Part shown: in pieces, positions 1 to 38,730 of the stretch
How the letters are laid out: each line of letters starts with the position of its first letter
Position numbering within the stretch: position 1 is the stretch's first letter
Source: Promethearchaeota archaeon
GTDB lineage: Archaea; Asgardarchaeota; Lokiarchaeia; Sigyniarchaeales; SOKP01
NCBI GenBank assembly: GCA_019057865.1
Contig: JAHLWP010000005.1
Location: 32,001-96,000, forward strand
Length of the DNA stretch: 64,000 nucleotides
Direction of reading: 5' to 3'
The notes under the pieces: model-generated
What the model saw: the letters and a program-made list of their open reading frames with translations, nothing else
Told to the model about the DNA's origin: nothing
Databases searched by the model: none
Made by a program: the position numbers and the translations under genes

Positions 1-1059
1 TTCAAATTTAACTGTATAATTAGATGAAAACCTAGAAAACTCAGGAAAAATATTCCATTCATTATTAGAATCTGAAATTATTACAGAACCTTCTGAAAGA
101 AAGGTGTTTCTTAAATTAATGCTATATTTAACGTTAAAACCTAAATCAGACATTAAATTATTTGTAATTGGAATAGATATTACATCAGTATTCAGAGAAA
201 AGTTCATATTTAAATTTAGATTTCCAGTTCCATAACTACTACCATTTATAATTGGGAAATAATTTTTATCTATTTCAGCAGACATATTAATCTCTTCTGG
301 AAAAACTTCTTTTGTAATTTTTTGATCTAATTTGTATAGAAACGTTTCTCCAGTTATACCATTTACCCAATCTATATCATATCCCCATGAAAATAAATTT
401 GGATTATTTGGATTAATATCATTGATTTCCCAATAATATTTTGCCCCATCAGAAGGACCCATTTCTAAACCATTCACAATTAAATAATAATATCCTTTAG
501 TGATATGTATAGAAGAAGGAAAACTTTGGGAATACCATTTTGTTTCACTTGACATATTTAATACAACTGATCCATAAACTGTTTCATTTGGTTTATTTGT
601 TGGATTATCATAGCCATTTATTTGAACTTTTATAGTAGTTGTTGTAGCTGGGTTAGATTCATACCCATAAATTTGCACTCCAAAAACATCAGTAGGCTCT
701 GTAATATTAATTTGGATTGCATATGCTTTATCCCATTTATCTAATTCTCTCGAATGACCAACTCCAATGCTTTCAATTTCTCGTATCTCACGTTTAAATT
801 CAATATTCGTAAAATTTAACTCAATATTAGTAAGATCCCACTTAGATGAATTTAATGGAATCTCAATTGAACTAACATTGTTAATGTTATCTCTAATATT
901 CGCGTATTCAGTCATTTCAAAATTAAGATTAATTGGCGGAGATTCGCCATTAATTTGAGCGTTGGAAAAAGTTATGAGATTATTTAAAAAAAATAGAAAT
1001 GATAATAAAACTAATATGATTACAACAACGTTTTTTGATTTTGATATAGCTTTTTCCAT
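1..1059 (-). CDS. Large secreted/cell-surface protein, N-terminal part (runs off the left edge)
   Basis: Hand translation from ATG at 1059: MEKAISKSKNVVVIILVLLSFLFFLNNLITFSNAQINGESPPINLNFEMTEY. Basic N-terminus plus hydrophobic signal/anchor, then beta-rich sequence with several N-x-S/T sequons. The frame appears open to position 1, which explains its absence from the ORF track. Confidence 0.75.
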   Translation of the reverse strand, partial: MEKAISKSKNVVVIILVLLSFLFFLNNLITFSNAQINGESPPINLNFEMTEYANIRDNINNVSSIEIPLNSSKWDLTNIELNFTNIEFKREIREIESIGVGHSRELDKWDKAYAIQINITEPTDVFGVQIYGYESNPATTTTIKVQINGYDNPTNKPNETVYGSVVLNMSSETKWYSQSFPSSIHITKGYYYLIVNGLEMGPSDGAKYYWEINDINPNNPNLFSWGYDIDWVNGITGETFLYKLDQKITKEVFPEEINMSAEIDKNYFPIINGSSYGTGNLNLNMNFSLNTDVISIPITNNLMSDLGFNVKYSINLRNTFLSEGSVIISDSNNEWNIFPEFSRFSSNYTVKFE

Positions 1060-26030: not shown

Positions 26031-27233
26031 TTAATAAAGGTCAAGTTTGACACCACATTTTTTACACTGGGAATCTAATAATTTAACAAAGCAATCTTCA
26101 TGGTATAGTTGACCACATTCTGGATTACCACATTTAACTACTTTTTGACCTTTCTCAAAAATAAATTGGCATATTGGACAACTTGAATAGAGATCATCCT
26201 CTCTAAGCTCATCAATATTCATTGATTTTGCTGAGAATGTCTGTGGTTTCTGAAAACTAACTTCTTTTTTACCTTTTGAAAGAATCCTTAATTTCTGTAT
26301 TTGAGAAACTTCAGTTGGAATTTTTAATAGAAAAAAGCAATGGGGACACCTTGCGGTTCCAGATTTCTTTAATTTACTACTATGTTGAGAATCTGCCCAT
26401 GCTGCTAAACAATGAATGTGAAATGGAGTTTGACAGTTAGGGCAATATCTACCAGTAACATAAAATGATCCTTTAGTATATGGATTTTTATCAGAAAAAC
26501 AGATTGTGCATTTTTTAAAATCAGCTTCTCCTCTCAACTGTTTTATACGCTGTTCTTGATCTTTCGTTAAATCTTGAACTCTTAATAAATTTGCAGCTAT
26601 TTTCCTAAGGAAAGCTGGATTTTCTATATCGATTTCCTTTACTCCATAATTTTTTATGTTAGCTTCAGCAAATTCATGAGCAGATTGTAATAAAGTCCCT
26701 ACATCATTATTAAAATAGTATCTACCTCCTGTAAGATCACTTATTTTTTTTAAGATATTGACTTGGCTTACGTCTCCAATTCTAAATGTATCAATTTTTA
26801 TATTTAATCCTTCTGCAAGACGAGCCATTCTTAATGGATCGATAGCTGTATTTTTTGTGTAGTTCCCATCAGAAATAAGAAGTATTTTGGGATTTTTAGC
26901 TGCAATTTTTCTTAATTCAGCAATAACAGTTTTAATTGATAAAGCTAGCCCTTCTCCCATAGCAGAATTCCCTCCAAGCTTTATAGAATCCAATGCTGAA
27001 AAAAGACTATTTATGAAATTTGAAGTTGTAAAGTCCATAATTTTTTCTGCTATATCAGAAAATTTAATAATTGCAAATGCACTTGAAGTATCTAAATTAA
27101 ATCTATCAGTTATTAATTTTTTAACAGCCTTTATACAACAAATCAATCGGTTAGGAGTATAATCTGTTCTAAACATTGATCTTGATGTATCGATGCAAAT
27201 AACGATATTTTCAGGGACTCTTTGCTCAGACAT
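26031..27233 (-). CDS. vWA domain plus two C4HC3 RING-like fingers (putative E3 ligase)
   Basis: MIDAS DTSRS and ISDG; CTIC..CPNC..FHIHCLAAW..CPHC; CPIC..CGNPEC..YHEDC..CKKC. Confidence 0.88.
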   Translation of the reverse strand: MSEQRVPENIVICIDTSRSMFRTDYTPNRLICCIKAVKKLITDRFNLDTSSAFAIIKFSDIAEKIMDFTTSNFINSLFSALDSIKLGGNSAMGEGLALSIKTVIAELRKIAAKNPKILLISDGNYTKNTAIDPLRMARLAEGLNIKIDTFRIGDVSQVNILKKISDLTGGRYYFNNDVGTLLQSAHEFAEANIKNYGVKEIDIENPAFLRKIAANLLRVQDLTKDQEQRIKQLRGEADFKKCTICFSDKNPYTKGSFYVTGRYCPNCQTPFHIHCLAAWADSQHSSKLKKSGTARCPHCFFLLKIPTEVSQIQKLRILSKGKKEVSFQKPQTFSAKSMNIDELREDDLYSSCPICQFIFEKGQKVVKCGNPECGQLYHEDCFVKLLDSQCKKCGVKLDLY

Positions 27234-27437
27234 CTTATTTTGAAAATCTTATTGAGAATTTTGCTAGACAAAATCTAATAAATCTATTTTATATATGTAT
27301 ATTAATTTATAAATAAATAACAGTCTTCAGAAAAATAAAGTTTTTTTTAAATTATACTAATATTTAATAAAACGTTTTACAACTATTAAAGTAAAGAATA
27401 TATAATAAAAGTAAAATGTAATTTAATCTGGTGTATA

Positions 27438-28646
27438 ATGTCAGAGAATAGTGAAAAAGAGATAATTATTAAAGATTTTTTTAAAAGTAATGTAATTTTC
27501 TCAGAATTAGATGAAATTTTAAGATTAAAGCCAGAAACTATGATTGGTATAGATAAAGTAAGTTCTGATAAATTAGTTGAAAATAATATCAAAACTGTTG
27601 AAGATCTAGCCAATCTATCAGTTGATAATCTCCCTGAAATCGAAGATTTACTACCTAAAATATTTAGAAAATGGGTCAAGATAGCTCAAGTCATACAAAA
27701 AGCTGTAAAAGAACAGTTGCGTCGCCATAAGAAGCTTTTAATGATAGGTCTCGATAATGGGGGCAAAACCTCCATCCTAGCGGTAGTTCAAGATAAATTC
27801 TCGATTATAAAATCCTTATTGCCAACAAGAGGCGTTAAGAGAGAAAAACTGGACTTCTTCGGATATCCAATAGTTTCGTGGGATTTAGGTGGACAAATCC
27901 AATATAGAGAAAAATTATATTTTAATAGACCAGAATTATTTTTTACCGAAGCTGACATCCTTTTATATGTTATTGATAGTCAAGATCTAGAAAGATTAGC
28001 AGAATCAGCTAATTATTTTCGAGAAGTTCTAAAAGCCTTAATAGATTTAGATGAGCAACCAAAGATTTTAATAATTATGAGCAAAAGCGATCCAGATTTT
28101 CGTAAATCATTCCAGTGGCAAAAAAATGTTGAAAGTATCAAGAATAAATTTGACAAAATTGCCGATGAATATAAACAATTCACAGTAGATTATTGTGATA
28201 CATCAATATTTCAAAGAGAGACCATAATGCAAATGTTTAGTATTGCCTTGAAGAAAGTTTCTGAAACTTCTGAAATTATCGAAAATATTCTTGAAGATTT
28301 TACTAGTCAGGTTGAGGGTAAAGCGTCAAGTTTAGTATCGATGGACGGATTAATTTTTGGAAGTTATACCAAAACAAGTACTGATGAGATGTTAGTGAAT
28401 AATACAGCACTTTTATTGCAAACACTTTCGAATTTTTATAGTTCAATTGGTCTTATTAGAGAAAAATCAATAAGTCTTGATTTACCACTTAATGGGTTTA
28501 CTATTCGGGGTGAAAAATTATTTGAGTATTCAGACCTTCATATACCTGTATATTTATGGCTGGTTTCGGAAAACCCAGAATTATTACAAAGCAAAATTGA
28601 TTATTTTAGAAAACAATTATTGCCATTGATTAACTTATTCCTCTGA
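27438..28646 (+). CDS. HhH-like domain + Arf-like small GTPase + roadblock-like domain
   Basis: GLDNGGKTS, PTRG, WDLGGQ, SKSD, TSI; N-terminal IGIDKVSSDKLVENNIKTVEDLA; C-terminal SSLVSMDGLIFGS. Confidence 0.85.
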   Translation: MSENSEKEIIIKDFFKSNVIFSELDEILRLKPETMIGIDKVSSDKLVENNIKTVEDLANLSVDNLPEIEDLLPKIFRKWVKIAQVIQKAVKEQLRRHKKLLMIGLDNGGKTSILAVVQDKFSIIKSLLPTRGVKREKLDFFGYPIVSWDLGGQIQYREKLYFNRPELFFTEADILLYVIDSQDLERLAESANYFREVLKALIDLDEQPKILIIMSKSDPDFRKSFQWQKNVESIKNKFDKIADEYKQFTVDYCDTSIFQRETIMQMFSIALKKVSETSEIIENILEDFTSQVEGKASSLVSMDGLIFGSYTKTSTDEMLVNNTALLLQTLSNFYSSIGLIREKSISLDLPLNGFTIRGEKLFEYSDLHIPVYLWLVSENPELLQSKIDYFRKQLLPLINLFL

Positions 28647-28714
28647 TTTTTACTTTTTTTTAAAATTATCTTATCATTTTAATGAATAAAGCTCAAATTG
28701 AATTTTCGGGTATT

Positions 28715-28927
28715 TTATTCTAATTTCTTATTAGCCTCGAGTAGATATTCATTGCACTTTTCCATCATTTCAATTGCTTTATTTAAGTTATCAACAATTG
28801 AGTCCAAACCCTTATTTTTTGCAACATCTCGCCATTTTATAAAAGATTCTTTGTGAGAATTATTATGATCTGCCCAATGTTTCAATAATTTAGATAATTT
28901 TAAAATATCCTTATCTTGTTTATCCAA
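28715..28927 (-). CDS. Small helical protein with HWxxHNxxH motif (putative metal-binding)
   Basis: LLKHWADHNNSHKESF; TTG start; lies downstream of cdhA. Confidence 0.75.
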   Translation of the reverse strand: MDKQDKDILKLSKLLKHWADHNNSHKESFIKWRDVAKNKGLDSIVDNLNKAIEMMEKCNEYLLEANKKLE

Positions 28928-29075
28928 ACAATCTCACACTCTGAAAATTAAAAATGATATTATAATAAAATTATGTACTATACATTAAATTTTTGACTTA
29001 AACTTCTAAACTTAGTTTAAACTCAATGAATAATGCAATTTTAAAAAAAAAAGAAATATAAAAATTAAAAATAAA

Positions 29076-31430
29076 TTAGGCATGGCATAATCTTTTTAGC
29101 AAAGTTGGATCTATAATCTCTTTTGGTTTCCAACCCCTTTCTTTTAGATATTCTACAACTTCATCTTTCACGTTAATAGGAATATCTGCTTCGACACGTA
29201 TAAATTTATCTAAATCATTTGGGAATTTGACACCCTTATATTTACGTTCTAAGTCGATCCAATGAGATAATTTTATCATTCTGCCTTTTGAGTTATCAGC
29301 AGGTCTCAAACATAATTTAGCAACTAAACAGATTGCTTGCTCAATTGACTCAGCTGTAGTTAATAAATGCTCGGGACAAGGCCCTATTAAATGGTCAGCA
29401 GTTCCATCTCTTGCATTCCATACTTTCCAAGTATCTTCATCATCAGATCTGCCAATATACATTCTTCTATATTCAGCAGAATGAGGACCTACTACTGCGG
29501 GTACACCTAATCCATTTGCCATACTTGCGATACTTGCTGCCTTTTGACTCATTGCACCCCAAGCAACCCCCACGGCTCCAACTCTGTTTAAAATATAGTC
29601 AGCGATTTCTTCAAAATTACCTCTTAATGGACGCCTTGCGAAAATATTTGCTACCTTACATGCAGCTCCAGTGATGTGTGGATTTGAAACGCAACTTCCA
29701 ACGTTCACCAAACCACCACGGTCAAATTCGCCAGAATAACGATCATACAAAGTGTTGCCCTCTTCATCCTTAACAAGACCAATATCCATAGCACCACATC
29801 CAGAGACTACGACTATATAATTTCTTTTACAGAATTCTTCAGCCATTAAATAGAGTTCTTGGATATCTTTACCATAATTAGCACATCCAATAATAGCTAT
29901 AATACCTGGAATTTCTCCTAGAACGATAGGAGCGCCAACATTCCTAATTTCAGTGTCCATAATTGGTCCACGCCCAACTCTACAATTAAAGGTCTCGGTT
30001 CGAATCTTTTCGCGGCCAGCATATTGTATTAGAGTTAATGGGGATACGTTTTTCATACATTCCGCTTCACATCGCCCACAACCAAGGCAAAGATCAAAAG
30101 TATCTGCTAGTACAGAAAAGTCTCCCTCTTTTGCCAATCGAATACCTTCTACTAGTGGTAAATCATTAGGACAATTTCGTTGACAATTTTCACAGCCATT
30201 ACATCTATATGCCATATCAATACATCCTTGTTCATCAGGTACTCCACTTTTAGCTTTTCTTATAGGTTTTACTTTTATCGCAGTTTCAGCAGCTACTTCA
30301 CCTGCTTTTATTGGATCTAAAATTAAAACCCCAGGTGTTTTACCACTCACTAAATCATCAACAATTTCTTCATTTGGATCACCTGTTCTATCTGGAAGTC
30401 CACCCATATTTTTTTCATTAGTAGCAATAAATGGAGCTCCAATTAATTGAGCTTGCTCAAAAGATCTTAAATTAACACATTGCTCATCAACCATCACTAC
30501 ATCGGCTAAACCAGAACGGATGAAATGAAGTTGTCTTGACATTGAACCAACAATTTTTGCACCATCATAATACCTTGTTAAATCATGAGCAGTACAACAG
30601 ATAGCTCCAATATCAACCTTATCCTCAATTCCTTTTTCTCTTATGTAATCAACTAACTCAATTCCTGGAGCAACATTATGCCCAATCATTAAAATTGTCG
30701 CCTTGCTTGTATCCATTGTTCCCATACCTAATTCTACGATAGGAACATCTGGATCTCCCATAGGAAATCCATATGCAGCGATTTGTACCGCGTCAGAAAT
30801 CTCCATACCAACAGAATCTGCTAAACCGGCTAAGAAGCTTTTAGCTTCATAATCTAAGTAATTTGATTCTTGACCAGTATGACCTGCTGCGAGCAAGTGA
30901 GTTATAGTATAATGAACCCATTCCATTGCTGTTTCTAAATCCTCTAACGTTTCAGGTTTCATACCTACAACTAATCGAGTATGAGGCATCTCAACAGCAA
31001 TATTATTACCAAAATTAATGGGTACATTCCCGTATTTTTCTTTTAACCAATGTAATAAATGATCTCCATGAGCACTATGACAGGCAGCACCAATACAACA
31101 TGCAATTTCTACAATACGGCCCTGTTGGGTTTCCATATTAATTCCACATGCACCTGTCCTACCTTTTGATAGATTGCATTTACCATATGTACATAAGCAA
31201 CACATATCACATATTGGCATGTAATAAGGTTTATATCTTTCCATAAGCTTGAAAAACCATGATCTCAATGTGGGGATATTCGGAGTTGGTGTAGGACCAA
31301 GTGGTTCCCATTCAGTTTCATCTCCATAAGAAATTTTACCAGTAGTTAATTCAAATCCTTTAATTGTTCCCAGTGGTCCTTTATAAGAGTCTATTTTAAG
31401 TTTTGCTCCTTTTTTTTCCAATTTTTTCAC
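29076..31430 (-). CDS. cdhA: CO dehydrogenase/acetyl-CoA synthase complex alpha subunit (archaeal type)
   Basis: CDMCCLCTYGKC; C-cluster ligands GHN, ICCT, DEQC, GCAN, SGC, GSCVSN; two ferredoxin-like CxxCxxCxxxC motifs. Confidence 0.96.
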   Translation of the reverse strand: MKKLEKKGAKLKIDSYKGPLGTIKGFELTTGKISYGDETEWEPLGPTPTPNIPTLRSWFFKLMERYKPYYMPICDMCCLCTYGKCNLSKGRTGACGINMETQQGRIVEIACCIGAACHSAHGDHLLHWLKEKYGNVPINFGNNIAVEMPHTRLVVGMKPETLEDLETAMEWVHYTITHLLAAGHTGQESNYLDYEAKSFLAGLADSVGMEISDAVQIAAYGFPMGDPDVPIVELGMGTMDTSKATILMIGHNVAPGIELVDYIREKGIEDKVDIGAICCTAHDLTRYYDGAKIVGSMSRQLHFIRSGLADVVMVDEQCVNLRSFEQAQLIGAPFIATNEKNMGGLPDRTGDPNEEIVDDLVSGKTPGVLILDPIKAGEVAAETAIKVKPIRKAKSGVPDEQGCIDMAYRCNGCENCQRNCPNDLPLVEGIRLAKEGDFSVLADTFDLCLGCGRCEAECMKNVSPLTLIQYAGREKIRTETFNCRVGRGPIMDTEIRNVGAPIVLGEIPGIIAIIGCANYGKDIQELYLMAEEFCKRNYIVVVSGCGAMDIGLVKDEEGNTLYDRYSGEFDRGGLVNVGSCVSNPHITGAACKVANIFARRPLRGNFEEIADYILNRVGAVGVAWGAMSQKAASIASMANGLGVPAVVGPHSAEYRRMYIGRSDDEDTWKVWNARDGTADHLIGPCPEHLLTTAESIEQAICLVAKLCLRPADNSKGRMIKLSHWIDLERKYKGVKFPNDLDKFIRVEADIPINVKDEVVEYLKERGWKPKEIIDPTLLKRLCHA

Positions 31431-31492
31431 TTTACTTTTTTTTTTAATATTAGGTATAATCGATAATAATTAGGTTTATCTTTGATTTTATT

Positions 31493-31529
31493 TTAAATCT
31501 ATGAAATAGATTTAATTCTATGAAATAGA
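31493..31529. promoter_or_regulatory. Tandem palindromic operator (TCTAT-GAA-ATAGA x2) upstream of cdhA
   Basis: Identical 13-mers at 31498-31510 and 31517-31529; the first extends to 10-bp arms (31493-31515); - strand TATA-like TTAAATA at 31532-31538. Confidence 0.65.
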
Positions 31530-31599
31530 CATATTTAAGAATTTAAAAGTTGATGTTTATATTCCAAAACTTAGATTTGGAAATTCCATAATTATAAAA

Positions 31600-31617
31600 A
31601 GTGTGAAGCTTCACACT
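31600..31617. promoter_or_regulatory. Perfect 18-bp palindrome AGTGTGAAGCTTCACACT
   Basis: Read directly; lies between the V4R gene stop and the cdhA promoter region. Confidence 0.55.
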
Positions 31618-31668
31618 AGCTTAAAAATCTGAATTCAGTAAAATGAAATTAATCTAAAAACTATAACC

Positions 31669-32265
31669 TTAAAGTGTAGAGAGAAAATCAGAAACTACTT
31701 CTTCTGAGGGTTCTGGATCGACAACAGAACTATCTAGTTCTTCACTTATGATATCAAATTGGTATGTACATTTATCAGCACCTACTAGAACACATTCAAC
31801 TTCCTGACCATCGACATCAAAATTTAAGGTTTCAAGTACCCCTTGGAAGATGCCTAAGTAAAGTAAGCATATGTTTTTAGCCATAATATTTTCTTTTTCT
31901 TGAGATGCTAAGGAGTTATTTACACCCACTAAAATTTGAGTTTTTCTGAATAGTGCCCTTAATTGACCATAACCCATTAATTCCATGGCTTCAAGAACAC
32001 CTAGAAATACATTTTTTTTAGTGAATATTTTTTCAGCGCCCCAGTCTTTATTTGAAAAGAATTTTTCCATAAAAGATCTTCCCAGAGTTTTTCCTACCCA
32101 AGTCAATATATCATCCGCATTTGTACCAGCAAATTCTGTGAATTCGATCAAATCAATAGGTCTTAACATTAACAACCTCACATCTTTCTTTTTTTCGCCG
32201 AAAAACAGCTGTCCTAATTTCTCTTCAATCATTATTTGTAATTCTTTTTTCAATATTTTTGACAT
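31669..32265 (-). CDS. V4R-domain protein
   Basis: VGKTLG, MGYG, ICLLYLGIFQG, EVECVLVGADKCTY. Confidence 0.8.
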   Translation of the reverse strand: MSKILKKELQIMIEEKLGQLFFGEKKKDVRLLMLRPIDLIEFTEFAGTNADDILTWVGKTLGRSFMEKFFSNKDWGAEKIFTKKNVFLGVLEAMELMGYGQLRALFRKTQILVGVNNSLASQEKENIMAKNICLLYLGIFQGVLETLNFDVDGQEVECVLVGADKCTYQFDIISEELDSSVVDPEPSEEVVSDFLSTL

Positions 32266-32390
32266 TACTTTTCCCTAATTAAGTATTTCATAAAGAATAT
32301 TAAGAGATTATATAATAGAAATTTAAGTGTCTAGATATTTAAATTTAATGTTTAAATTAATTGAAATCTAAAATTAAAATATTAGGATTA

Positions 32391-33446
32391 TTAAGAAGCG
32401 ACCAAGTTAAAAATATTTTGGATTACAGCATCGATATTGTATTTTGTCTTTACTGATGTGAAAAGCAATGCCCAATCTCTATTATTAATATTTTTAAAGT
32501 TAAAAAAATCAAATAATTCTTCTTTTAATTTCTCTAGTTGATTTTCCCTGCTTTTTTCTGAAGATTTAATTAAATCTGTTTTATTTCCCACTATTAGTAA
32601 AGGAATACCGGACAAATCATCTCTATTCACAATATTCCAGAATTCTTTTTTTGATTCTTCAAATCGTATTTGGTTAGCGATATCGATCATAAATACAATA
32701 ATATTTGAGTCTTGTAAGCCAATCAACCATTTTTTTCGAAAATTTTGTTGACCTGGCATATCCCAAAAAGCCAGCACCCCTTTTTCTTGTTTTTCAATAT
32801 ATTCAATATTGAATTTTCGTGTTGGAGCAAAGAAATTATCATTGAATTCACCTGTTTTTATTCTTCTTACAAGGGATGTCTTGCCAACTTCATCAATTCC
32901 AAATAAAAAGACTTTAATAAATAACTCTTGCTGATAATTATAGACGATTTTAGGAGGTTTTTCGATAATTTCATCCCCATATCTTCGAATATCAATGAAC
33001 ATCGAAATTAGCAAATTTTCTATTTCAATTTCATCATCAAAAGAATATACTGTTCCATTATTTAATAATTCACTCAATAATTCTTCAAAAATTTCTTTAT
33101 AATCATAAGGATTATCTTCTTTATCAAAAATTAAACCTATAATAATTTTTCCGTTTATACAAGAGGTATATATATTTAAATCATTAATAATTTGTGCAAC
33201 TGGCTTATCAATTTTATAATGATTTGATTTTTTGTTTAAGTCTAGGTTAGAGATCGATAAATATTTATCTTTTTTATCCTTGTTATTTAGATTTGCCTGA
33301 TCATGACCAGTAATAATCAAATTAACAAGATTTTTGTCATTGATGTTTATAATATCATTTGGATAGCTATAGATATTAAGATCTTTTAAGTCTTGAAATT
33401 TCTTCCCTTTAAATAGAAAAATGTTATGTAGCAATGAAATTTCCAA
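32391..33446 (-). CDS. Longin-like N-terminal domain + Arf-like small GTPase
   Basis: GIDEVGKTS, PT, WDMPGQ, NKTD, TSVK. The longin-like call for the N-terminus (IIIGLIFDKEDNP..Y) is tentative. Confidence 0.85.
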   Translation of the reverse strand: MEISLLHNIFLFKGKKFQDLKDLNIYSYPNDIININDKNLVNLIITGHDQANLNNKDKKDKYLSISNLDLNKKSNHYKIDKPVAQIINDLNIYTSCINGKIIIGLIFDKEDNPYDYKEIFEELLSELLNNGTVYSFDDEIEIENLLISMFIDIRRYGDEIIEKPPKIVYNYQQELFIKVFLFGIDEVGKTSLVRRIKTGEFNDNFFAPTRKFNIEYIEKQEKGVLAFWDMPGQQNFRKKWLIGLQDSNIIVFMIDIANQIRFEESKKEFWNIVNRDDLSGIPLLIVGNKTDLIKSSEKSRENQLEKLKEELFDFFNFKNINNRDWALLFTSVKTKYNIDAVIQNIFNLVAS

Positions 33447-33617: not shown

Positions 33618-35012
33618 CTATTCTTTGCTATCTTCTTCAACATCTGGAGTTTCTTGTTTATTATCAGAAGTTTTTGTTTCTGATGGAGCCTCAGATTGCG
33701 GAGTTGATTTTGATGCTACAGGTGTTCCACAGATAGGACATTTTGACCAACCTGGTCTCAAGCCGTAACCACATTTTGAGCATTCTTGCATATCCTCATC
33801 TGGTTTCCATTCTGGTATATCTAAACCACCTTGTCTTTTACTAGCAAATTCTTGTAATTCATCTTCTGTCCAAAACTCCATACCCTCAGGTAAACTGGAA
33901 CCTCTCTCTTGGACAAATTTGGTTATTTCTTCTTCCGACCAAATGGGCATATCAGGTTGAGTAGCCCTTCTTTTTTGTGCTTCTTCTGCTAACTCCTCAG
34001 CTGTCCATGCTTTAAGCTCTTGACCTCCCGGAGTTCTCACTACACCTGGTTGTTGAGGAGAAATTTGGCTAGGAGCCTGGGTACCCACAACACCTCCACT
34101 AATAGAAGGTGCATTACAACACTCAGCAGAAAACTTTAAAAGTGCTTCAAAACATTTTGAGAATTTATTTAGATCCTTCCCTTCATCAGTAACTAACATT
34201 AATGTAGTTTTATCAGCTGGCTGAGGAATAGCAATACCACACATGGCAATATCTGATTTAAGTCGCCCTGATTCTATACCAGAAGTGAGTTTTTCCATTG
34301 AGTTCGTTAAATCCTCATCTTTCATCAAAAAATCACAGATTGGATCTCCGTGTCTCTGGAAACTCTCATGGTATTTAGCTAGTTGAGTTCTTGTTATCGT
34401 TGAGTTAAGAGATCTAATAATAGCATCTACATACGGAAAAATTTGAGACTTAGGACCTTTTTGAGATCCTTCTAGCTCATAACCACCTAAATCAAGAGCT
34501 CCCGTAATAGGAGCGAATAGAGATGTTTCATTCTTCATTTTACCATAAATTATTGGTCTTGAAATAACACATTTGATTTCTCCGTAATAGGCAATAGCGT
34601 CATCAAAAAATTGAACTTTTCCATCATAGATAATTCGTGGAACACTTCGGAAAATTACATCAGCCCAAGGCATTTCTTTTACTGGAATTATTACATAACA
34701 TGTTTTATCAATTAAATCGCGCAATTTTTTAATGAAATCTTTTAACTCTTTTTTAATATTCTGATATTCTTCACTAATTAATTCTTCTTCTGCATTTTTT
34801 TCAAATTCTTTAAATTTTTCTTCATTTTTCTTGAGGTTTCCCCCAAATGATTTAACTTCTCCAATAGTATTACCTTGTAAAATAGATGTGGCATTTTCAA
34901 TAATTTTTTTCTGAAAATCGGATAACTCAGCCTCAGAACTTGAAATAAGGTAATCGTTGATATTGAATTGGATTTTATTAGCAAAGACTTCAAACAATTT
35001 CTTTTCTGACAA
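33618..35012 (-). CDS. Hypothetical protein with W[TS]x[ED]E repeats and a C-terminal zinc ribbon
   Basis: WTAEEL, WSEEEI, WTEDEL about 23 aa apart; CSKC...CPIC; disordered flanks. Confidence 0.8.
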   Translation of the reverse strand: MSEKKLFEVFANKIQFNINDYLISSSEAELSDFQKKIIENATSILQGNTIGEVKSFGGNLKKNEEKFKEFEKNAEEELISEEYQNIKKELKDFIKKLRDLIDKTCYVIIPVKEMPWADVIFRSVPRIIYDGKVQFFDDAIAYYGEIKCVISRPIIYGKMKNETSLFAPITGALDLGGYELEGSQKGPKSQIFPYVDAIIRSLNSTITRTQLAKYHESFQRHGDPICDFLMKDEDLTNSMEKLTSGIESGRLKSDIAMCGIAIPQPADKTTLMLVTDEGKDLNKFSKCFEALLKFSAECCNAPSISGGVVGTQAPSQISPQQPGVVRTPGGQELKAWTAEELAEEAQKRRATQPDMPIWSEEEITKFVQERGSSLPEGMEFWTEDELQEFASKRQGGLDIPEWKPDEDMQECSKCGYGLRPGWSKCPICGTPVASKSTPQSEAPSETKTSDNKQETPDVEEDSKE

Positions 35013-35221
35013 TTCTTTTACCTTTTTCCTTTGCTTTTTTAATTACTTAGATATTTATAAATATAGCAATGAAAGGTATATAAAAATTTAATTGAATCTA
35101 GTTTTCTACATGTTAAGTAAAATTGAATAAATTACTCATAAGTATTTAATAGAACGCTTTAATTATTAAAAAAATTAAAAATCCGAGACTAAATCGTTTC
35201 TTAATATTCAATCTTATATCT

Positions 35222-36430
35222 CTAAGGTAAGGGAAACATTAGATAACAAATTTTAGTCCAATTTAGTCCATGGTATTCAATTAAACCCATCATTTTATTA
35301 TACGCATCAACAGAATAATATTGACAAATGGGGGCAGGACTTCCATTTTCAATAACCGCAAAATGTACATGAGCAGATGAATTCACATTGTAAAACCTAG
35401 CAATGTCCCAACCTAATTGCACCCATTCGCCCAACTCAACATGCATCATACTTGCTTGTTGTTGATAATCTAAATAACTATCAGACCAAATCTCAAATAA
35501 ATATTCAGTTGCAATAGTTATACTGTAATTTATTACTAATCGTAAGGCATATCTATCTTGTCTTCCTGTCCCTCTATCTATAAATTCAATTTTGGTAACC
35601 TGACCTGGTGCAGCTGCTAACACTTTTGAACTATCTTTAAAATAGAAATCAAATCCTAAGTGTATTTCATTCCATGGGCAAAGAACTGTATTAGAATATC
35701 CCTTTACTACCTTTGAAATTGAACCATTAAATTCAAAACTAGCTACCATATAATCTAAGGGAGTATTTTCATCATAACATAAATAAGGCCAATCTGGATG
35801 ATAAATATGAACTAATCCCATCATCCTATTATAGGCTGCTGGAGAATAATATCTGTCAAGACGAGTGCGAACATCATCTTCTATTACATCAAAATGTATA
35901 TGAGCACCTTCTCCAATTTCCAAAAATAGCGCGATTTCTTGCCCAACCTCGACCCAATCTCCTATACTAACATTTATTAAGCTTTTTTGATTTTCATGAT
36001 CACTACTTTCATTAGTCCAAGGTTCAAAATTGTAATTTACATATACGCTATGATTAAATCTTATACTAACCTCAACCATATATCTATTTTCTGTAGCTTC
36101 ACCCCAATCTTTTTCTCGAATAATGCTTACTTGCCCAGGAGCTGCTGCAAGGACTTTTGAGTCGTTAATTAAAGCAAAATCAAACCCTTCATGAGCTCTT
36201 GCCCATGGGCAACTGTTTGTCGTAGACCATGCATCATTAACCGTATAAATATATGATTCGTTTTCAAAAATGACATCCATATAATCCAGATGACCCCAAT
36301 CATATCGTTCTCCAGGATCAAAAAAGTTCTCTTCCCAAGGTGGATTTTCCAGAATTCGAGGTACAATAATAATTCCTGCAATAATTACTACAGCAACTAT
36401 AATAAGTGAAATTATACCTTTTTTTTTCAT
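35222..36430 (-). CDS. Membrane-anchored protein with two tandem M23 metallopeptidase-like domains
   Basis: MKKK + TM; HEGFD...VLAAAPGQV...VSIGDWVEVGQEIA...HIHF; HLGFD...VLAAAPGQV...VELGEWV...HVHF. Confidence 0.85.
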   Translation of the reverse strand: MKKKGIISLIIVAVVIIAGIIIVPRILENPPWEENFFDPGERYDWGHLDYMDVIFENESYIYTVNDAWSTTNSCPWARAHEGFDFALINDSKVLAAAPGQVSIIREKDWGEATENRYMVEVSIRFNHSVYVNYNFEPWTNESSDHENQKSLINVSIGDWVEVGQEIALFLEIGEGAHIHFDVIEDDVRTRLDRYYSPAAYNRMMGLVHIYHPDWPYLCYDENTPLDYMVASFEFNGSISKVVKGYSNTVLCPWNEIHLGFDFYFKDSSKVLAAAPGQVTKIEFIDRGTGRQDRYALRLVINYSITIATEYLFEIWSDSYLDYQQQASMMHVELGEWVQLGWDIARFYNVNSSAHVHFAVIENGSPAPICQYYSVDAYNKMMGLIEYHGLNWTKICYLMFPLP

Positions 36431-36852
36431 AAGTGAATGAAATAAAAAGAGATTTAAAAATATATCTGCTAAAATTAAATACTCAACTAATAAGAACCGT
36501 TAAATAAAAGGTTTATTTTTCCCTTTTCTCATGAGAATAAAAGAAAAAATTATTAAGCTTTTGAGGAAAAAATCATATTAAGGTTATAATAATTTATAAT
36601 AATTATGAACAAAATTTAGTATATCTTTTAAAGAATATAAAATGTTCATCCAAACTAATCAATTAATTTGAAAAAAAATTTGATATAATATAAAATTGAT
36701 TAAAACTTTTTATACTCAAAAATAACCTCAAAATTAAGCAGAAGAAAACGTTTTTAAAAAAGTAATGCTTAAATAAGCCATTTGGGTTTAATATATTAAT
36801 CCGATAAAAAAAAATCTTTATATATTATATTATCATAAAATGTTATATATAG

Positions 36853-36886
36853 AAAAGTTAAGGATTATAAAAGTTAAGGTTTAAGG
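36853..36886 (+). promoter_or_regulatory. Direct-repeat operator (AAAAGTTAAGG x2 plus TTAAGG) between the TATA box and the start of an RHH gene
   Basis: Copies at 36853-36863, 36869-36879 and 36881-36886; TATA TTATATAT at 36843-36850. Confidence 0.5.
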
Positions 36887-36895
36887 CGATTCAAA

Positions 36896-37497: not shown

Positions 37498-38730
37498 ATG
37501 GAATGGGGCATAATTAATAAAAATAATTTTAAAGATAAAACTACATATGATATACCGATTAAGAGATGGGATCCTTTATCGACAGTAAGAATAAAATCTA
37601 AGGATTTTGGGGTTCGAAAAAAGCGTGAAAGGTATTATGGACATTATTCCTATTTAAGCCCTATTAGAGGGAAAAGACCTAAAGGTTATGATACCGTAGA
37701 AAAGAAAAGTGAATTTGAGCATTGTCCAAAAAAGATTTATGCAAGAGTAAAGGATGTGTTTATGGCAGTCACAGAAGGAAAACCTATTTATGATAATTGG
37801 GGTTATCAACTGGGTGATGGTTTCACTATAATTATAGCTGAAGATGATAAAAAGTGCGACAATCCTTTTTTAGATACTCCTCATCAAATTGAAAGAATTC
37901 CTAATTCTTGCAAAGCAATCACTTTAATTAATCGGTATCCTTCAATGGCTCGGATTATAGACCCTGAAATAGAAAAATGTATCACTGAAGAATTGCCTCC
38001 TCATCTAAAACTCGCGAGAGGGATAAACTTAGTAACTATTTCAAGAAAATTTTATCCTTCCTTATGTTTTAATTTAATTCCAGAAGAAATAATTGCTGGA
38101 ATTTTTTTATCTATGAAAACGGCAATCCTTTATTGCGTTCAAGAAGCAATAGAACGTGACTATTATGACATTCCAGTAAATCCTTTTTTTAATATAGGTA
38201 TGAAAGTAGGAGGCTCACAACCTCGCATACATAGTCAAGTATATATTGATTTGAATGGTGATGGTCATGGAAGTCGATTAGAAGGGTTTTTAAGGGCATT
38301 CAAAGAGATGGGTGAAAATTGTCATTTATGTGAAACGTCACATGGAGATACAGATCGTATTATTTTAAAAACTGAATTTTGGACTTTTTATACCACAGGA
38401 AGTCCAGTACGAAATTATCACATTCGATTTCATCCAAATGAGCACTTGAGAAGATTTTCACAATTGAAAATTAATCAAATAAATGATTTAGCAAAATCTT
38501 TAAAGATTATCTTTCAAGCAATTGACGATATAAAAATAGATAAAAATCGAAATCTTTTATTTAATAGTTGCCCTTTTGGTTATGATGCCGATTTTCATAT
38601 GTTTGGTGATATTATTCCACATGAAGTAATTGGCGGAGCAGAGATGGCAGATGATATGCGAGTTGCGAGAAAGTTGCCCCATATTGCTGCAGCTGAAATT
38701 AGAGAATCAATAATCAAGTATCTTAATTAA
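37498..38730 (+). CDS. GalT/HIT-family nucleotidyltransferase (variant active-site motif)
   Basis: NRYP, FFNIG..GGSQPRIHSQ (cf. GASxxHPHxQ), CHLC, second HIT-fold half. Confidence 0.8.
   Translation: MEWGIINKNNFKDKTTYDIPIKRWDPLSTVRIKSKDFGVRKKRERYYGHYSYLSPIRGKRPKGYDTVEKKSEFEHCPKKIYARVKDVFMAVTEGKPIYDNWGYQLGDGFTIIIAEDDKKCDNPFLDTPHQIERIPNSCKAITLINRYPSMARIIDPEIEKCITEELPPHLKLARGINLVTISRKFYPSLCFNLIPEEIIAGIFLSMKTAILYCVQEAIERDYYDIPVNPFFNIGMKVGGSQPRIHSQVYIDLNGDGHGSRLEGFLRAFKEMGENCHLCETSHGDTDRIILKTEFWTFYTTGSPVRNYHIRFHPNEHLRRFSQLKINQINDLAKSLKIIFQAIDDIKIDKNRNLLFNSCPFGYDADFHMFGDIIPHEVIGGAEMADDMRVARKLPHIAAAEIRESIIKYLN

Follow-up and report, generated by a model that had tools for sequence, protein, structure and literature searches.

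The stretch of DNA analysed here, hereafter the window, comprises 64,000 nucleotides from a Promethearchaeota archaeon (contig JAHLWP010000005.1, positions 32,001 to 96,000). Its minus strand carries at 35222..36430 a whole coding sequence, evident from the list of open reading frames, its translation, a Pfam match to PF01551 (51.6 bits) and orthologues, for a tandem M23-like ectoprotein of 402 residues plus stop. Read from its sequence, with a probability that we put near 0.45, this protein would be an active ecto-peptidase whose foreign substrate is most likely the peptidoglycan of bacteria. Models of eukaryote origins turn on the physical and metabolic dealings of Asgard archaea with bacteria; to our knowledge, almost no Asgard surface enzymes aimed at bacteria have been characterised. 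The gene is a concrete, expressible candidate: a murein-type peptidase outside a murein-free archaeon, dispensable, strain-variable and with one of its two modules swapped. Members of the gene family already bear a generic annotation, and archaeal peptidoglycan hydrolases are a published concept; in the literature we found none that connects Asgard archaea to M23 or describes the variant set of motifs reported here. The chemistry of the subfamily may differ from the LytM paradigm, which bears on peptidase mechanism and on the turnover of bacterial necromass carbon in sediments. Interest would be high if both the variant mechanism and the bacterial target hold; an inactive or protein-only version would be an ordinary surface peptidase or binder.

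The protein begins with a predicted signal anchor (residues 1-28, MKKKGIISLIIVAVVIIAGIIIVPRILE; 36347..36430, minus strand) and continues as two modules of about 170 residues each. The basic N-terminus reads MKKK and is followed by 18 hydrophobic residues; residues 5-23 are the sole strong hydrophobic segment (Kyte-Doolittle 3.32, with values never above 1.6 beyond residue 40), and AlphaFold2 (AF2) models a helix at residues 3-28 behind the MKKK. By the positive-inside rule, this arrangement fits an N-in/C-out signal anchor with the remainder of the protein directed outward. Module 1 spans residues 51-221 (35768..36280, minus strand) and is the conserved M23-type module, closing with a helix particular to the family. 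Module 2 (residues 228-397; 35240..35749, minus strand) is a paralogous M23-type module with an intact site, of allele class A, and is 40% identical to module 1 in their mutual alignment (E 7e-36).

Ten N-x-S/T sequons give the protein a density of 2.49 per 100 residues (the median among 30 long open reading frames of the window is 0.54), and of 20 orthologues 19-20 retain the sequon residues N57, N89 and N126. Within each module a pair of Cys residues would join the module start to its C-terminal helix: Cys74 (36209..36211) and its predicted disulfide partner Cys218 (35777-35779) in module 1, and their equivalents Cys251 (35678-35680) and Cys395 (35246-35248) in module 2, all on the minus strand. 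The pair is kept in the Asgard group (70 of 80 and 66 of 80 modules for its two members), while in bacterial members the Cys of a CPE motif would pair with a terminal CY instead. Signal anchor, sequon density and conserved Cys pairs together argue for an extracytoplasmic ectodomain, probably N-glycosylated and disulfide-stabilised.

The match to Pfam Peptidase_M23 (gathering cut-off 28.7, E 1.1e-13) covers stretches in both modules. A Pfam scan of the protein at E<=0.1 returned nothing besides PF01551, an NCBIfam scan gave no match close to any cut-off, and phmmer with the single protein found no match among PDB sequences; the family profile, as opposed to the single sequence, did reach M23 chains in the PDB, weakly. 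The full-length AF2 model has a predicted local distance difference test score (pLDDT) of 83, and a model of module 1 built with 60 sequences reaches a pLDDT of 97.2 and a predicted template modelling score of 0.91. Every top Foldseek match is an M23/LytM structure at probability 1.0. With VIA-align the closest structure is Csd3 (Z 13.8, root-mean-square deviation 2.4 Å, 118 residues), followed at Z 12-13.5 by DipM, StM23, ShyA, EnvC, lysostaphin and LytM; LECT2 (PDB 5B0H) scores Z 9.9 and the M23A enzymes Z 9.4-9.7, and unrelated proteins of the EIIA-Glc hybrid fold drop to Z ~8. An hhalign comparison of 187 modules with the Escherichia coli MepM domain gives a probability of 97.7%. At the level of these models and profiles, the M23 fold of both modules is confirmed. 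Since the structural matches stop near model residue 150, the last helix (protein residues ~197-221) is a family-specific addition.

The metal site is complete in both modules, as translation of the motif coordinates shows. In module 1, HEGFD (36179..36193) supplies the predicted Zn ligands H80 and D84 and aligns with HxGxD of LytU, StM23 and MepM, and HIH (35894..35902) supplies the predicted water-activating H177 and Zn ligand H179 and aligns with HLHF/HVHF of M23 structures; the family profile likewise sets H80-x3-D84 and H177-x-H179 against the motifs of LytU, StM23 and LytM. Module 2 has HLGFD (H257/D261; 35648-35662) and HVH (H354/H356; 35363-35371). The departure from M23 enzymes lies between these motifs, where the signature YNFE (Y133-N-F135-E136; 36023..36034) stands in place of YxH and presents E136 as a candidate general base; YLFE (35492-35503) is the module 2 counterpart. 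Near-invariant Gln148 (35987..35989) follows, with Q325 (35456-35458) in module 2; all these motifs are on the minus strand. In M23 enzymes the third catalytic His lies ~30 residues before HxH (LytM His260, Lss His329; PMC9662197). The hhalign comparison equates Y133 with the Tyr of YMH in MepM, leaves a 13-residue insert (N134-E146) and pairs Gln148 with the MepM catalytic His; a simple strand register puts Phe135 at the third-His position. M23 enzymes also have an oxyanion-stabilising Tyr upstream of H(x)nD (LytM Tyr204, Lss Tyr270); in what may be the corresponding region, Cys74 precedes a conserved Pro, the bacterial members having A, C or S in place of Cys74, and the Pro is followed by an invariant Trp76.

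Across 187 full-length modules, P75-W76, H80, G82, D84, Y133, F135, E136, Q148, H177 and H/D179 are near-invariant; per residue, H80 is found in 180 modules, D84 in 179, Y133 in 184, F135 in 170, E136 in 174 and Q148 in 184. So nearly invariant a signature indicates that the missing third His is not a product of decay. The residues H80, D84, H177 and H/D179 are kept together in 164 of the 187 modules, and E136 is present in 162 of these 164; among modules with a broken metal site, E136 occurs in 12 of 23, whereas Q148, Y133 and the PW motif are still carried. Degenerate sites belong mostly to the second or third modules of multi-module proteins, with a few in the only full-length module detected in a protein, and the first module is intact in every multi-module protein of the set. 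Because E136 tracks the intact metal site while Q148 and PW persist in broken modules, this pattern suggests that E136 is part of the catalytic apparatus and that Gln148 and PW more probably have a structural role.

In the mechanism proposed for an active enzyme, the H-x3-D motif of each module would coordinate Zn together with the last His of HxH, and the water would be positioned by the His that opens HxH, an arrangement known from LytM and lysostaphin. The Glu of Y-x-F-E, itself near-invariant, would replace the third His as general base or water activator. A carboxylate general base beside Zn is ordinary zinc-peptidase chemistry, and VanX, of the same LAS group, is an example. Module 1 would serve as the conserved catalytic core; module 2, a fast-diverging paralogue exchanged between strains as a cassette, would probably set or widen target specificity. 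The likeliest substrate is bacterial peptidoglycan, cut at its peptide stems or cross-links, whether in living neighbours or in necromass; peptide fermentation would draw on the cleavage products, or the wall of a neighbour would be loosened. An earlier note on this DNA had claimed, from the letters and open reading frames, an outward type II membrane anchor, two duplicated domains with the full ligand sets HEGFD/HIH and HLGFD/HVH, an M23 fold, and an apparent replacement of the middle catalytic His (YxH), with YNFEP and YLFEI in its stead. Each of these claims agrees with the present results: the first with the signal anchor, sequon density and Cys pairs, the second with the 40% identity between modules and the translated coordinates, the third with the Pfam, Foldseek and VIA-align matches, and the last with the alignment to MepM and conservation over 187 modules.

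The case for a target outside the cell rests in part on the host. Its genome (99.67% complete, 5.15% contamination) holds one M23 gene, that of the window, and no match to Amidase_2, Amidase_3, NlpC/P60, SLT, penicillin-binding protein (PBP) transpeptidase or Mur_ligase_M, all families that are matched in control genomes. The host thus neither builds murein nor degrades it by other means, and its own wall is not the substrate. Around the gene, the order Zn-ribbon protein, M23, ribbon-helix-helix (RHH) protein and 410-residue protein recurs in four further genomes of the genus, which marks the gene as native rather than contamination. It is nevertheless present in only 5 of 22 genomes of the genus and missing from 17, including 100%-complete genomes. 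The interval from the Zn-ribbon gene to the RHH gene (window 35013-36895) is a variable slot within the genus; in four M23-less genomes (slot loci L027 3995-5047, L028 2211-3263, L029 1908-3236 and L030 4494-5329) it holds an unrelated D-2-hydroxyacid dehydrogenase of 350 residues in two and no open reading frame of at least 90 residues in the other two. The M23 gene is accessory and dispensable within the genus. A functional operon was considered and rejected: the Zn-ribbon protein, the RHH regulator and the unknown 410-residue protein stay put with or without the M23 gene.

A host without murein machinery and a strain-variable gene that the genus can dispense with, together with the strongly constrained metal site and the outward topology, argue that the enzyme would act on foreign material outside the cell, and family precedent makes bacterial peptidoglycan the first candidate substrate. 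Had the protein instead a housekeeping role in processing the archaeon's own envelope or protrusion proteins (e.g., in maturation or shedding of surface glycoproteins), its anchorage at the cell's own surface would be explained, and Asgard envelopes are poorly known. We consider such a role very unlikely, since a housekeeping gene would hardly be missing from 17 of 22 same-genus genomes, some 100% complete, with its slot empty or filled by a dehydrogenase; in a co-occurring strain (run X5, below) most of the gene is also deleted, and the protein is the sole M23 of its genome.

Module 2 varies between strains. Across two-module orthologues, module 1 is 75-84% identical to that of the window, whereas module 2 falls into two classes, one ~77% identical to the window's (P0002, P0003) and one ~40% identical (all other orthologues). 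The signal-anchor region resembles P0004-P0006 instead, which makes the gene a mosaic. DNA identity to the same-genus genome G213 is 92-97% in both flanks, 78-91% in module 1 and 52-68% over ~35100-35850. In metagenomes, a contig of run X3 matches 34896-35124 and 35750-36632, with 582 unrelated letters in place of 35125-35749; run X1, the probable source sample, holds the same replacement contig as a minor form (depth 47 versus 200). A contig of run X5 has 159 letters in place of 35125-36218, so that only 36219-36430 of the gene is kept and most of it is missing. From these genome and metagenome comparisons, the gene is a presence/absence polymorphism and module 2 with its 3' spacer (35125..35749, minus strand) is a dimorphic, replaceable cassette whose breakpoint lies at the inter-module linker. 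A separate observation concerns P0037, a 388-residue protein of an ENA contig with a fatty-acid desaturase domain (PF00487), which is 69% identical to the M23 protein over the latter's first ~82 residues (signal anchor and linker). P0037 may have arisen, as a remnant or by fusion, where the locus was deleted, much as in the X5 contig.

The patchy distribution in a variable slot and the exchange of module 2 are in keeping with an ecological role that is directed outward, although they do not in themselves identify the substrate. A bolder version of the peptidoglycan reading would make the protein a polymorphic effector against neighbouring cells, a contact-dependent Asgard bacteriolysin or remodeller of partner walls, with Glu in place of the third His as an M23 catalytic configuration not described before and with module 2 alleles as cassette-exchanged specificity variants for different bacterial (or pseudomurein) wall chemotypes. 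We regard this version as improbable.

The conserved signature of PW..HxGxD, Y-x-F-E, near-invariant Gln, HxH and a Cys-clamped C-terminal helix defines a distinct M23 subfamily, common to Asgard archaea and sediment bacteria. Close homologues come from metagenome-assembled genomes (MAGs) named Promethearchaeota, Lokiarchaeota and Hermodarchaeota, in which orthologues are 57-75% identical and bear the NCBI label 'M23 family metallopeptidase'. An exhaustive profile search of 1.84 billion representatives returned 336 proteins at E<=0.001, so the profile detects a narrow subfamily and not M23 at large. Within a sample of the phylum, 89 of 301 genomes have a match (25 of 90 among high-quality genomes). 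The common form there is a single module behind a transmembrane helix, ~215-235 residues long and often encoded by tandem gene pairs; the two-module form is limited to the genus of the window and near relatives, and a three-module form occurs in one genome. In an unrooted module tree, the clades of module 1 and module 2 are nested within Asgard single-module forms, and module 2 forms a subclade on much longer branches, which fits an origin of the two-module protein by duplication and fusion. Tandem pairs of separate single-module genes were also noted in other Asgard families (G097:C22:5912-7245; G155:C4:365945-367417; G263:C6:8905-10229; G116:C53:47-1403), and the fused two- and three-module proteins probably derive from such pairs.

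More distant members of the subfamily begin with lipobox-like signals, and the bacterial relatives are lipoproteins or secreted multidomain proteins. A scan of GTDB with a degenerate DNA pattern, which catches only those bacterial members with WQVN/YAFEP/HVHF, matched MAGs of Gammaproteobacteria, Deltaproteobacteria/Myxococcota, Thermodesulfobacteriota, UBP2 and others. Larger members carry PKD, Flg_new_2, Big_2, fn3, LRR, dockerin, CBM and type IX secretion system (T9SS) tail domains, and the lipoprotein and secreted multidomain forms mark a subfamily directed outward. A second, more divergent Asgard clade of single-module proteins (~205-245 residues; families f5, f15 and f29; loci L031-L038 in genomes G001, G012, G023, G123, G238, G262 and G292) groups with the bacterial members and not with the clade of the window, which suggests more than one transfer between domains. 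Searches of viral contigs and of the phage collection returned no relatives.

Several results weigh against an active peptidoglycan hydrolase. Neither module, nor any part of the subfamily over the 187 modules, has a conserved third catalytic His, and the alteration of non-ligand catalytic positions appears to affect two of them and spans the whole family. LECT2 demonstrates that an M23 fold can keep its Zn and yet be non-catalytic (PMC9662197). The association of E136 with the metal site has a naive Fisher p of 5e-10, which is inflated by relatedness; when kinship is controlled, six independent pairs are left with a median p of 0.5 and low power, and because the controlled test lacks power the association remains a lead. 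Characterised lytic M23 enzymes are almost all basic (PMC8498115), whereas the ectodomain of the window protein is acidic (pI 4.6, net charge -28). A domain search of the window protein and 74 longer subfamily members found no LysM, SH3b, PG_binding or SPOR domain, and the adjoining genes offer no functional link. The earlier note had pictured an ectoenzyme turned against the walls of neighbouring bacteria. Its premise of an archaeal host without peptidoglycan synthesis is borne out, with no Mur ligase or PBP in the nearly complete genome, and the outward role fits the distribution and the swapping of module 2; the bacterial wall as target is the part placed in doubt by the lack of a peptidoglycan-binding domain, the acidic ectodomain and the altered catalytic set.

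Some of the same results would also suit an active ecto-metallopeptidase with a substrate other than peptidoglycan, such as detrital or foreign proteins and peptides (e.g., Gly-rich or glycoprotein), feeding peptide and amino-acid fermentation. The altered catalytic residues, the 13-residue insert at the usual groove and His site, and the acidity of the proteins point this way, as does a subfamily that lacks wall-binding domains and is fused to PKD, CBM, dockerin, fn3 and T9SS-tail domains typical of secreted degradative enzymes. The M23A enzymes LasA and pseudoalterin also cut elastin. We nonetheless hold a non-peptidoglycan substrate to be somewhat unlikely, as the active M23 enzymes that have been characterised cleave, almost without exception, peptides of peptidoglycan (Table 1 of PMC9662197), and some of the bacterial relatives are small lipoproteins from diderms, which have murein in their periplasm. 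In two bacterial MAGs the gene immediately upstream of a single-module homologue encodes a GH47 alpha-mannosidase (E 1e-126; L008 3988-5361 and 5418-6044; L010 1988-3364, 3415-4041 and 4060-8000), and in one of the two a TamB/AsmA-like giant protein comes next. This adjacency is a hint that the bacterial lineage in question degrades glycoprotein and not murein, and it is counted for a non-peptidoglycan substrate, but it is confined to two related genomes.

The missing third His, together with the precedent of LECT2, which is itself among the structural matches (Z 9.9), also raises the prospect of a non-catalytic binder that retains its Zn: a LECT2-like protein or an extreme LytM factor serving as a surface adhesin or receptor, with module 2 diversifying under pressure from viruses or partners. 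The allelic dimorphism of module 2 is typical of exposed receptor proteins, and ligands are lost in some second and third modules. Yet Zn ligands, H177 and the Glu are strongly constrained in 162 of 187 modules from two domains of life, and active enzymes score higher (Z 12-14) than LECT2; a role of the EnvC/NlpD type is excluded by a genome with no amidase to activate. These considerations make a binder distinctly unlikely. An amidase activator like EnvC or NlpD was rejected as a candidate in its own right: the Zn ligands are intact and neither Amidase_2 nor Amidase_3 occurs in the genome.

The closest known counterparts of the window protein include the M23B peptidoglycan endopeptidases LytM, lysostaphin and MepM, with which it shares the beta-fold (Z 12-14), aligned HxxxD and HxH motifs and an extracytoplasmic location. 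In contrast to LytM, it has no counterpart of His260 and has in its place the 13-residue insert and the conserved Glu, with Gln at the hhalign-equivalent position. It further differs from M23B enzymes in an additional helix at the C-terminal end, which a conserved pair of Cys would clamp, its tandem duplication, the lack of SH3b, LysM and OapA domains, its acidic rather than basic character and its host without murein. The M23A enzymes (LasA, beta-lytic protease, pseudoalterin; Z 9.4-9.7) resemble it as secreted degradative M23 proteins. They contain disulfides and act on the walls of other organisms and on proteins. Their long H(x)12D spacing and retained third His (PMC9662197) contrast with the H(x)3D and missing third His of the window protein.

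Among archaeal proteins, Woldo/Danwoldo and other modular peptidoglycan hydrolases (PMC12352652) are likewise secreted M23 proteins with a patchy distribution and, as their producers lack murein, no need of self-immunity. Those of the Woldo/Danwoldo type, from Halobacteriales (and Nanoarchaeia), fuse a canonical M23 domain to PG_binding_1 repeats, and killing of bacteria by archaeal M23 peptidoglycan hydrolases has been shown in haloarchaea (PMC12352652). The window protein differs in having no wall-binding domain and variant catalytic residues, and in belonging to an Asgard archaeon. Modular peptidoglycan hydrolases in the sense of Strock et al. 2025 combine a catalytic domain with a recognised peptidoglycan-binding domain, and the window protein, having no such second domain, would escape that definition; Asgard archaea are not treated in the main text of that study (PMC12352652). 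Degenerate relatives form the last group for comparison. LECT2 shares the M23 fold, has lost the catalytic His and has kept the Zn site, with a Z below that of active enzymes, and EnvC, NlpD and SpoIIQ share the fold and lack a catalytic His. A LECT2-like non-enzymatic fold combines a retained Zn site and a lost catalytic His, both seen in the window protein, with an extra loop that occludes the groove, for which the 13-residue insert is a candidate. EnvC, NlpD and SpoIIQ have lost Zn ligands, whereas the window protein keeps all of them and has no amidase partner in its genome; unlike LECT2 and the degenerate LytM factors, it has a conserved Glu beside the position of the lost His.

The surroundings of the gene in the window are typically Asgard, with Arf- and Rag-like GTPases, a vWA-RING protein, a V4R protein and CdhA. 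A cluster of eukaryote-signature type (26031-33446) flanks a CdhA-like prismane/carbon monoxide dehydrogenase gene (29076-31430) and includes a vWA and RING finger protein (26031-27233), a Rag/Gtr1-like GTPase (27438-28646), the V4R protein (31669-32265) and an Arf-like GTPase extended by 170 residues at its N-terminus (32391-33446). The 410-residue protein of the M23 locus (37498-38730, plus strand) has no Pfam match, contains Cys/His-rich motifs and is found at 60-85% identity beside the RHH gene in all genus genomes examined. The top sequon density of the window, 2.83 per 100 residues, belongs to an open reading frame at 1-1059 (minus strand) that runs off the window start, lacks Cys and may encode a further surface glycoprotein.

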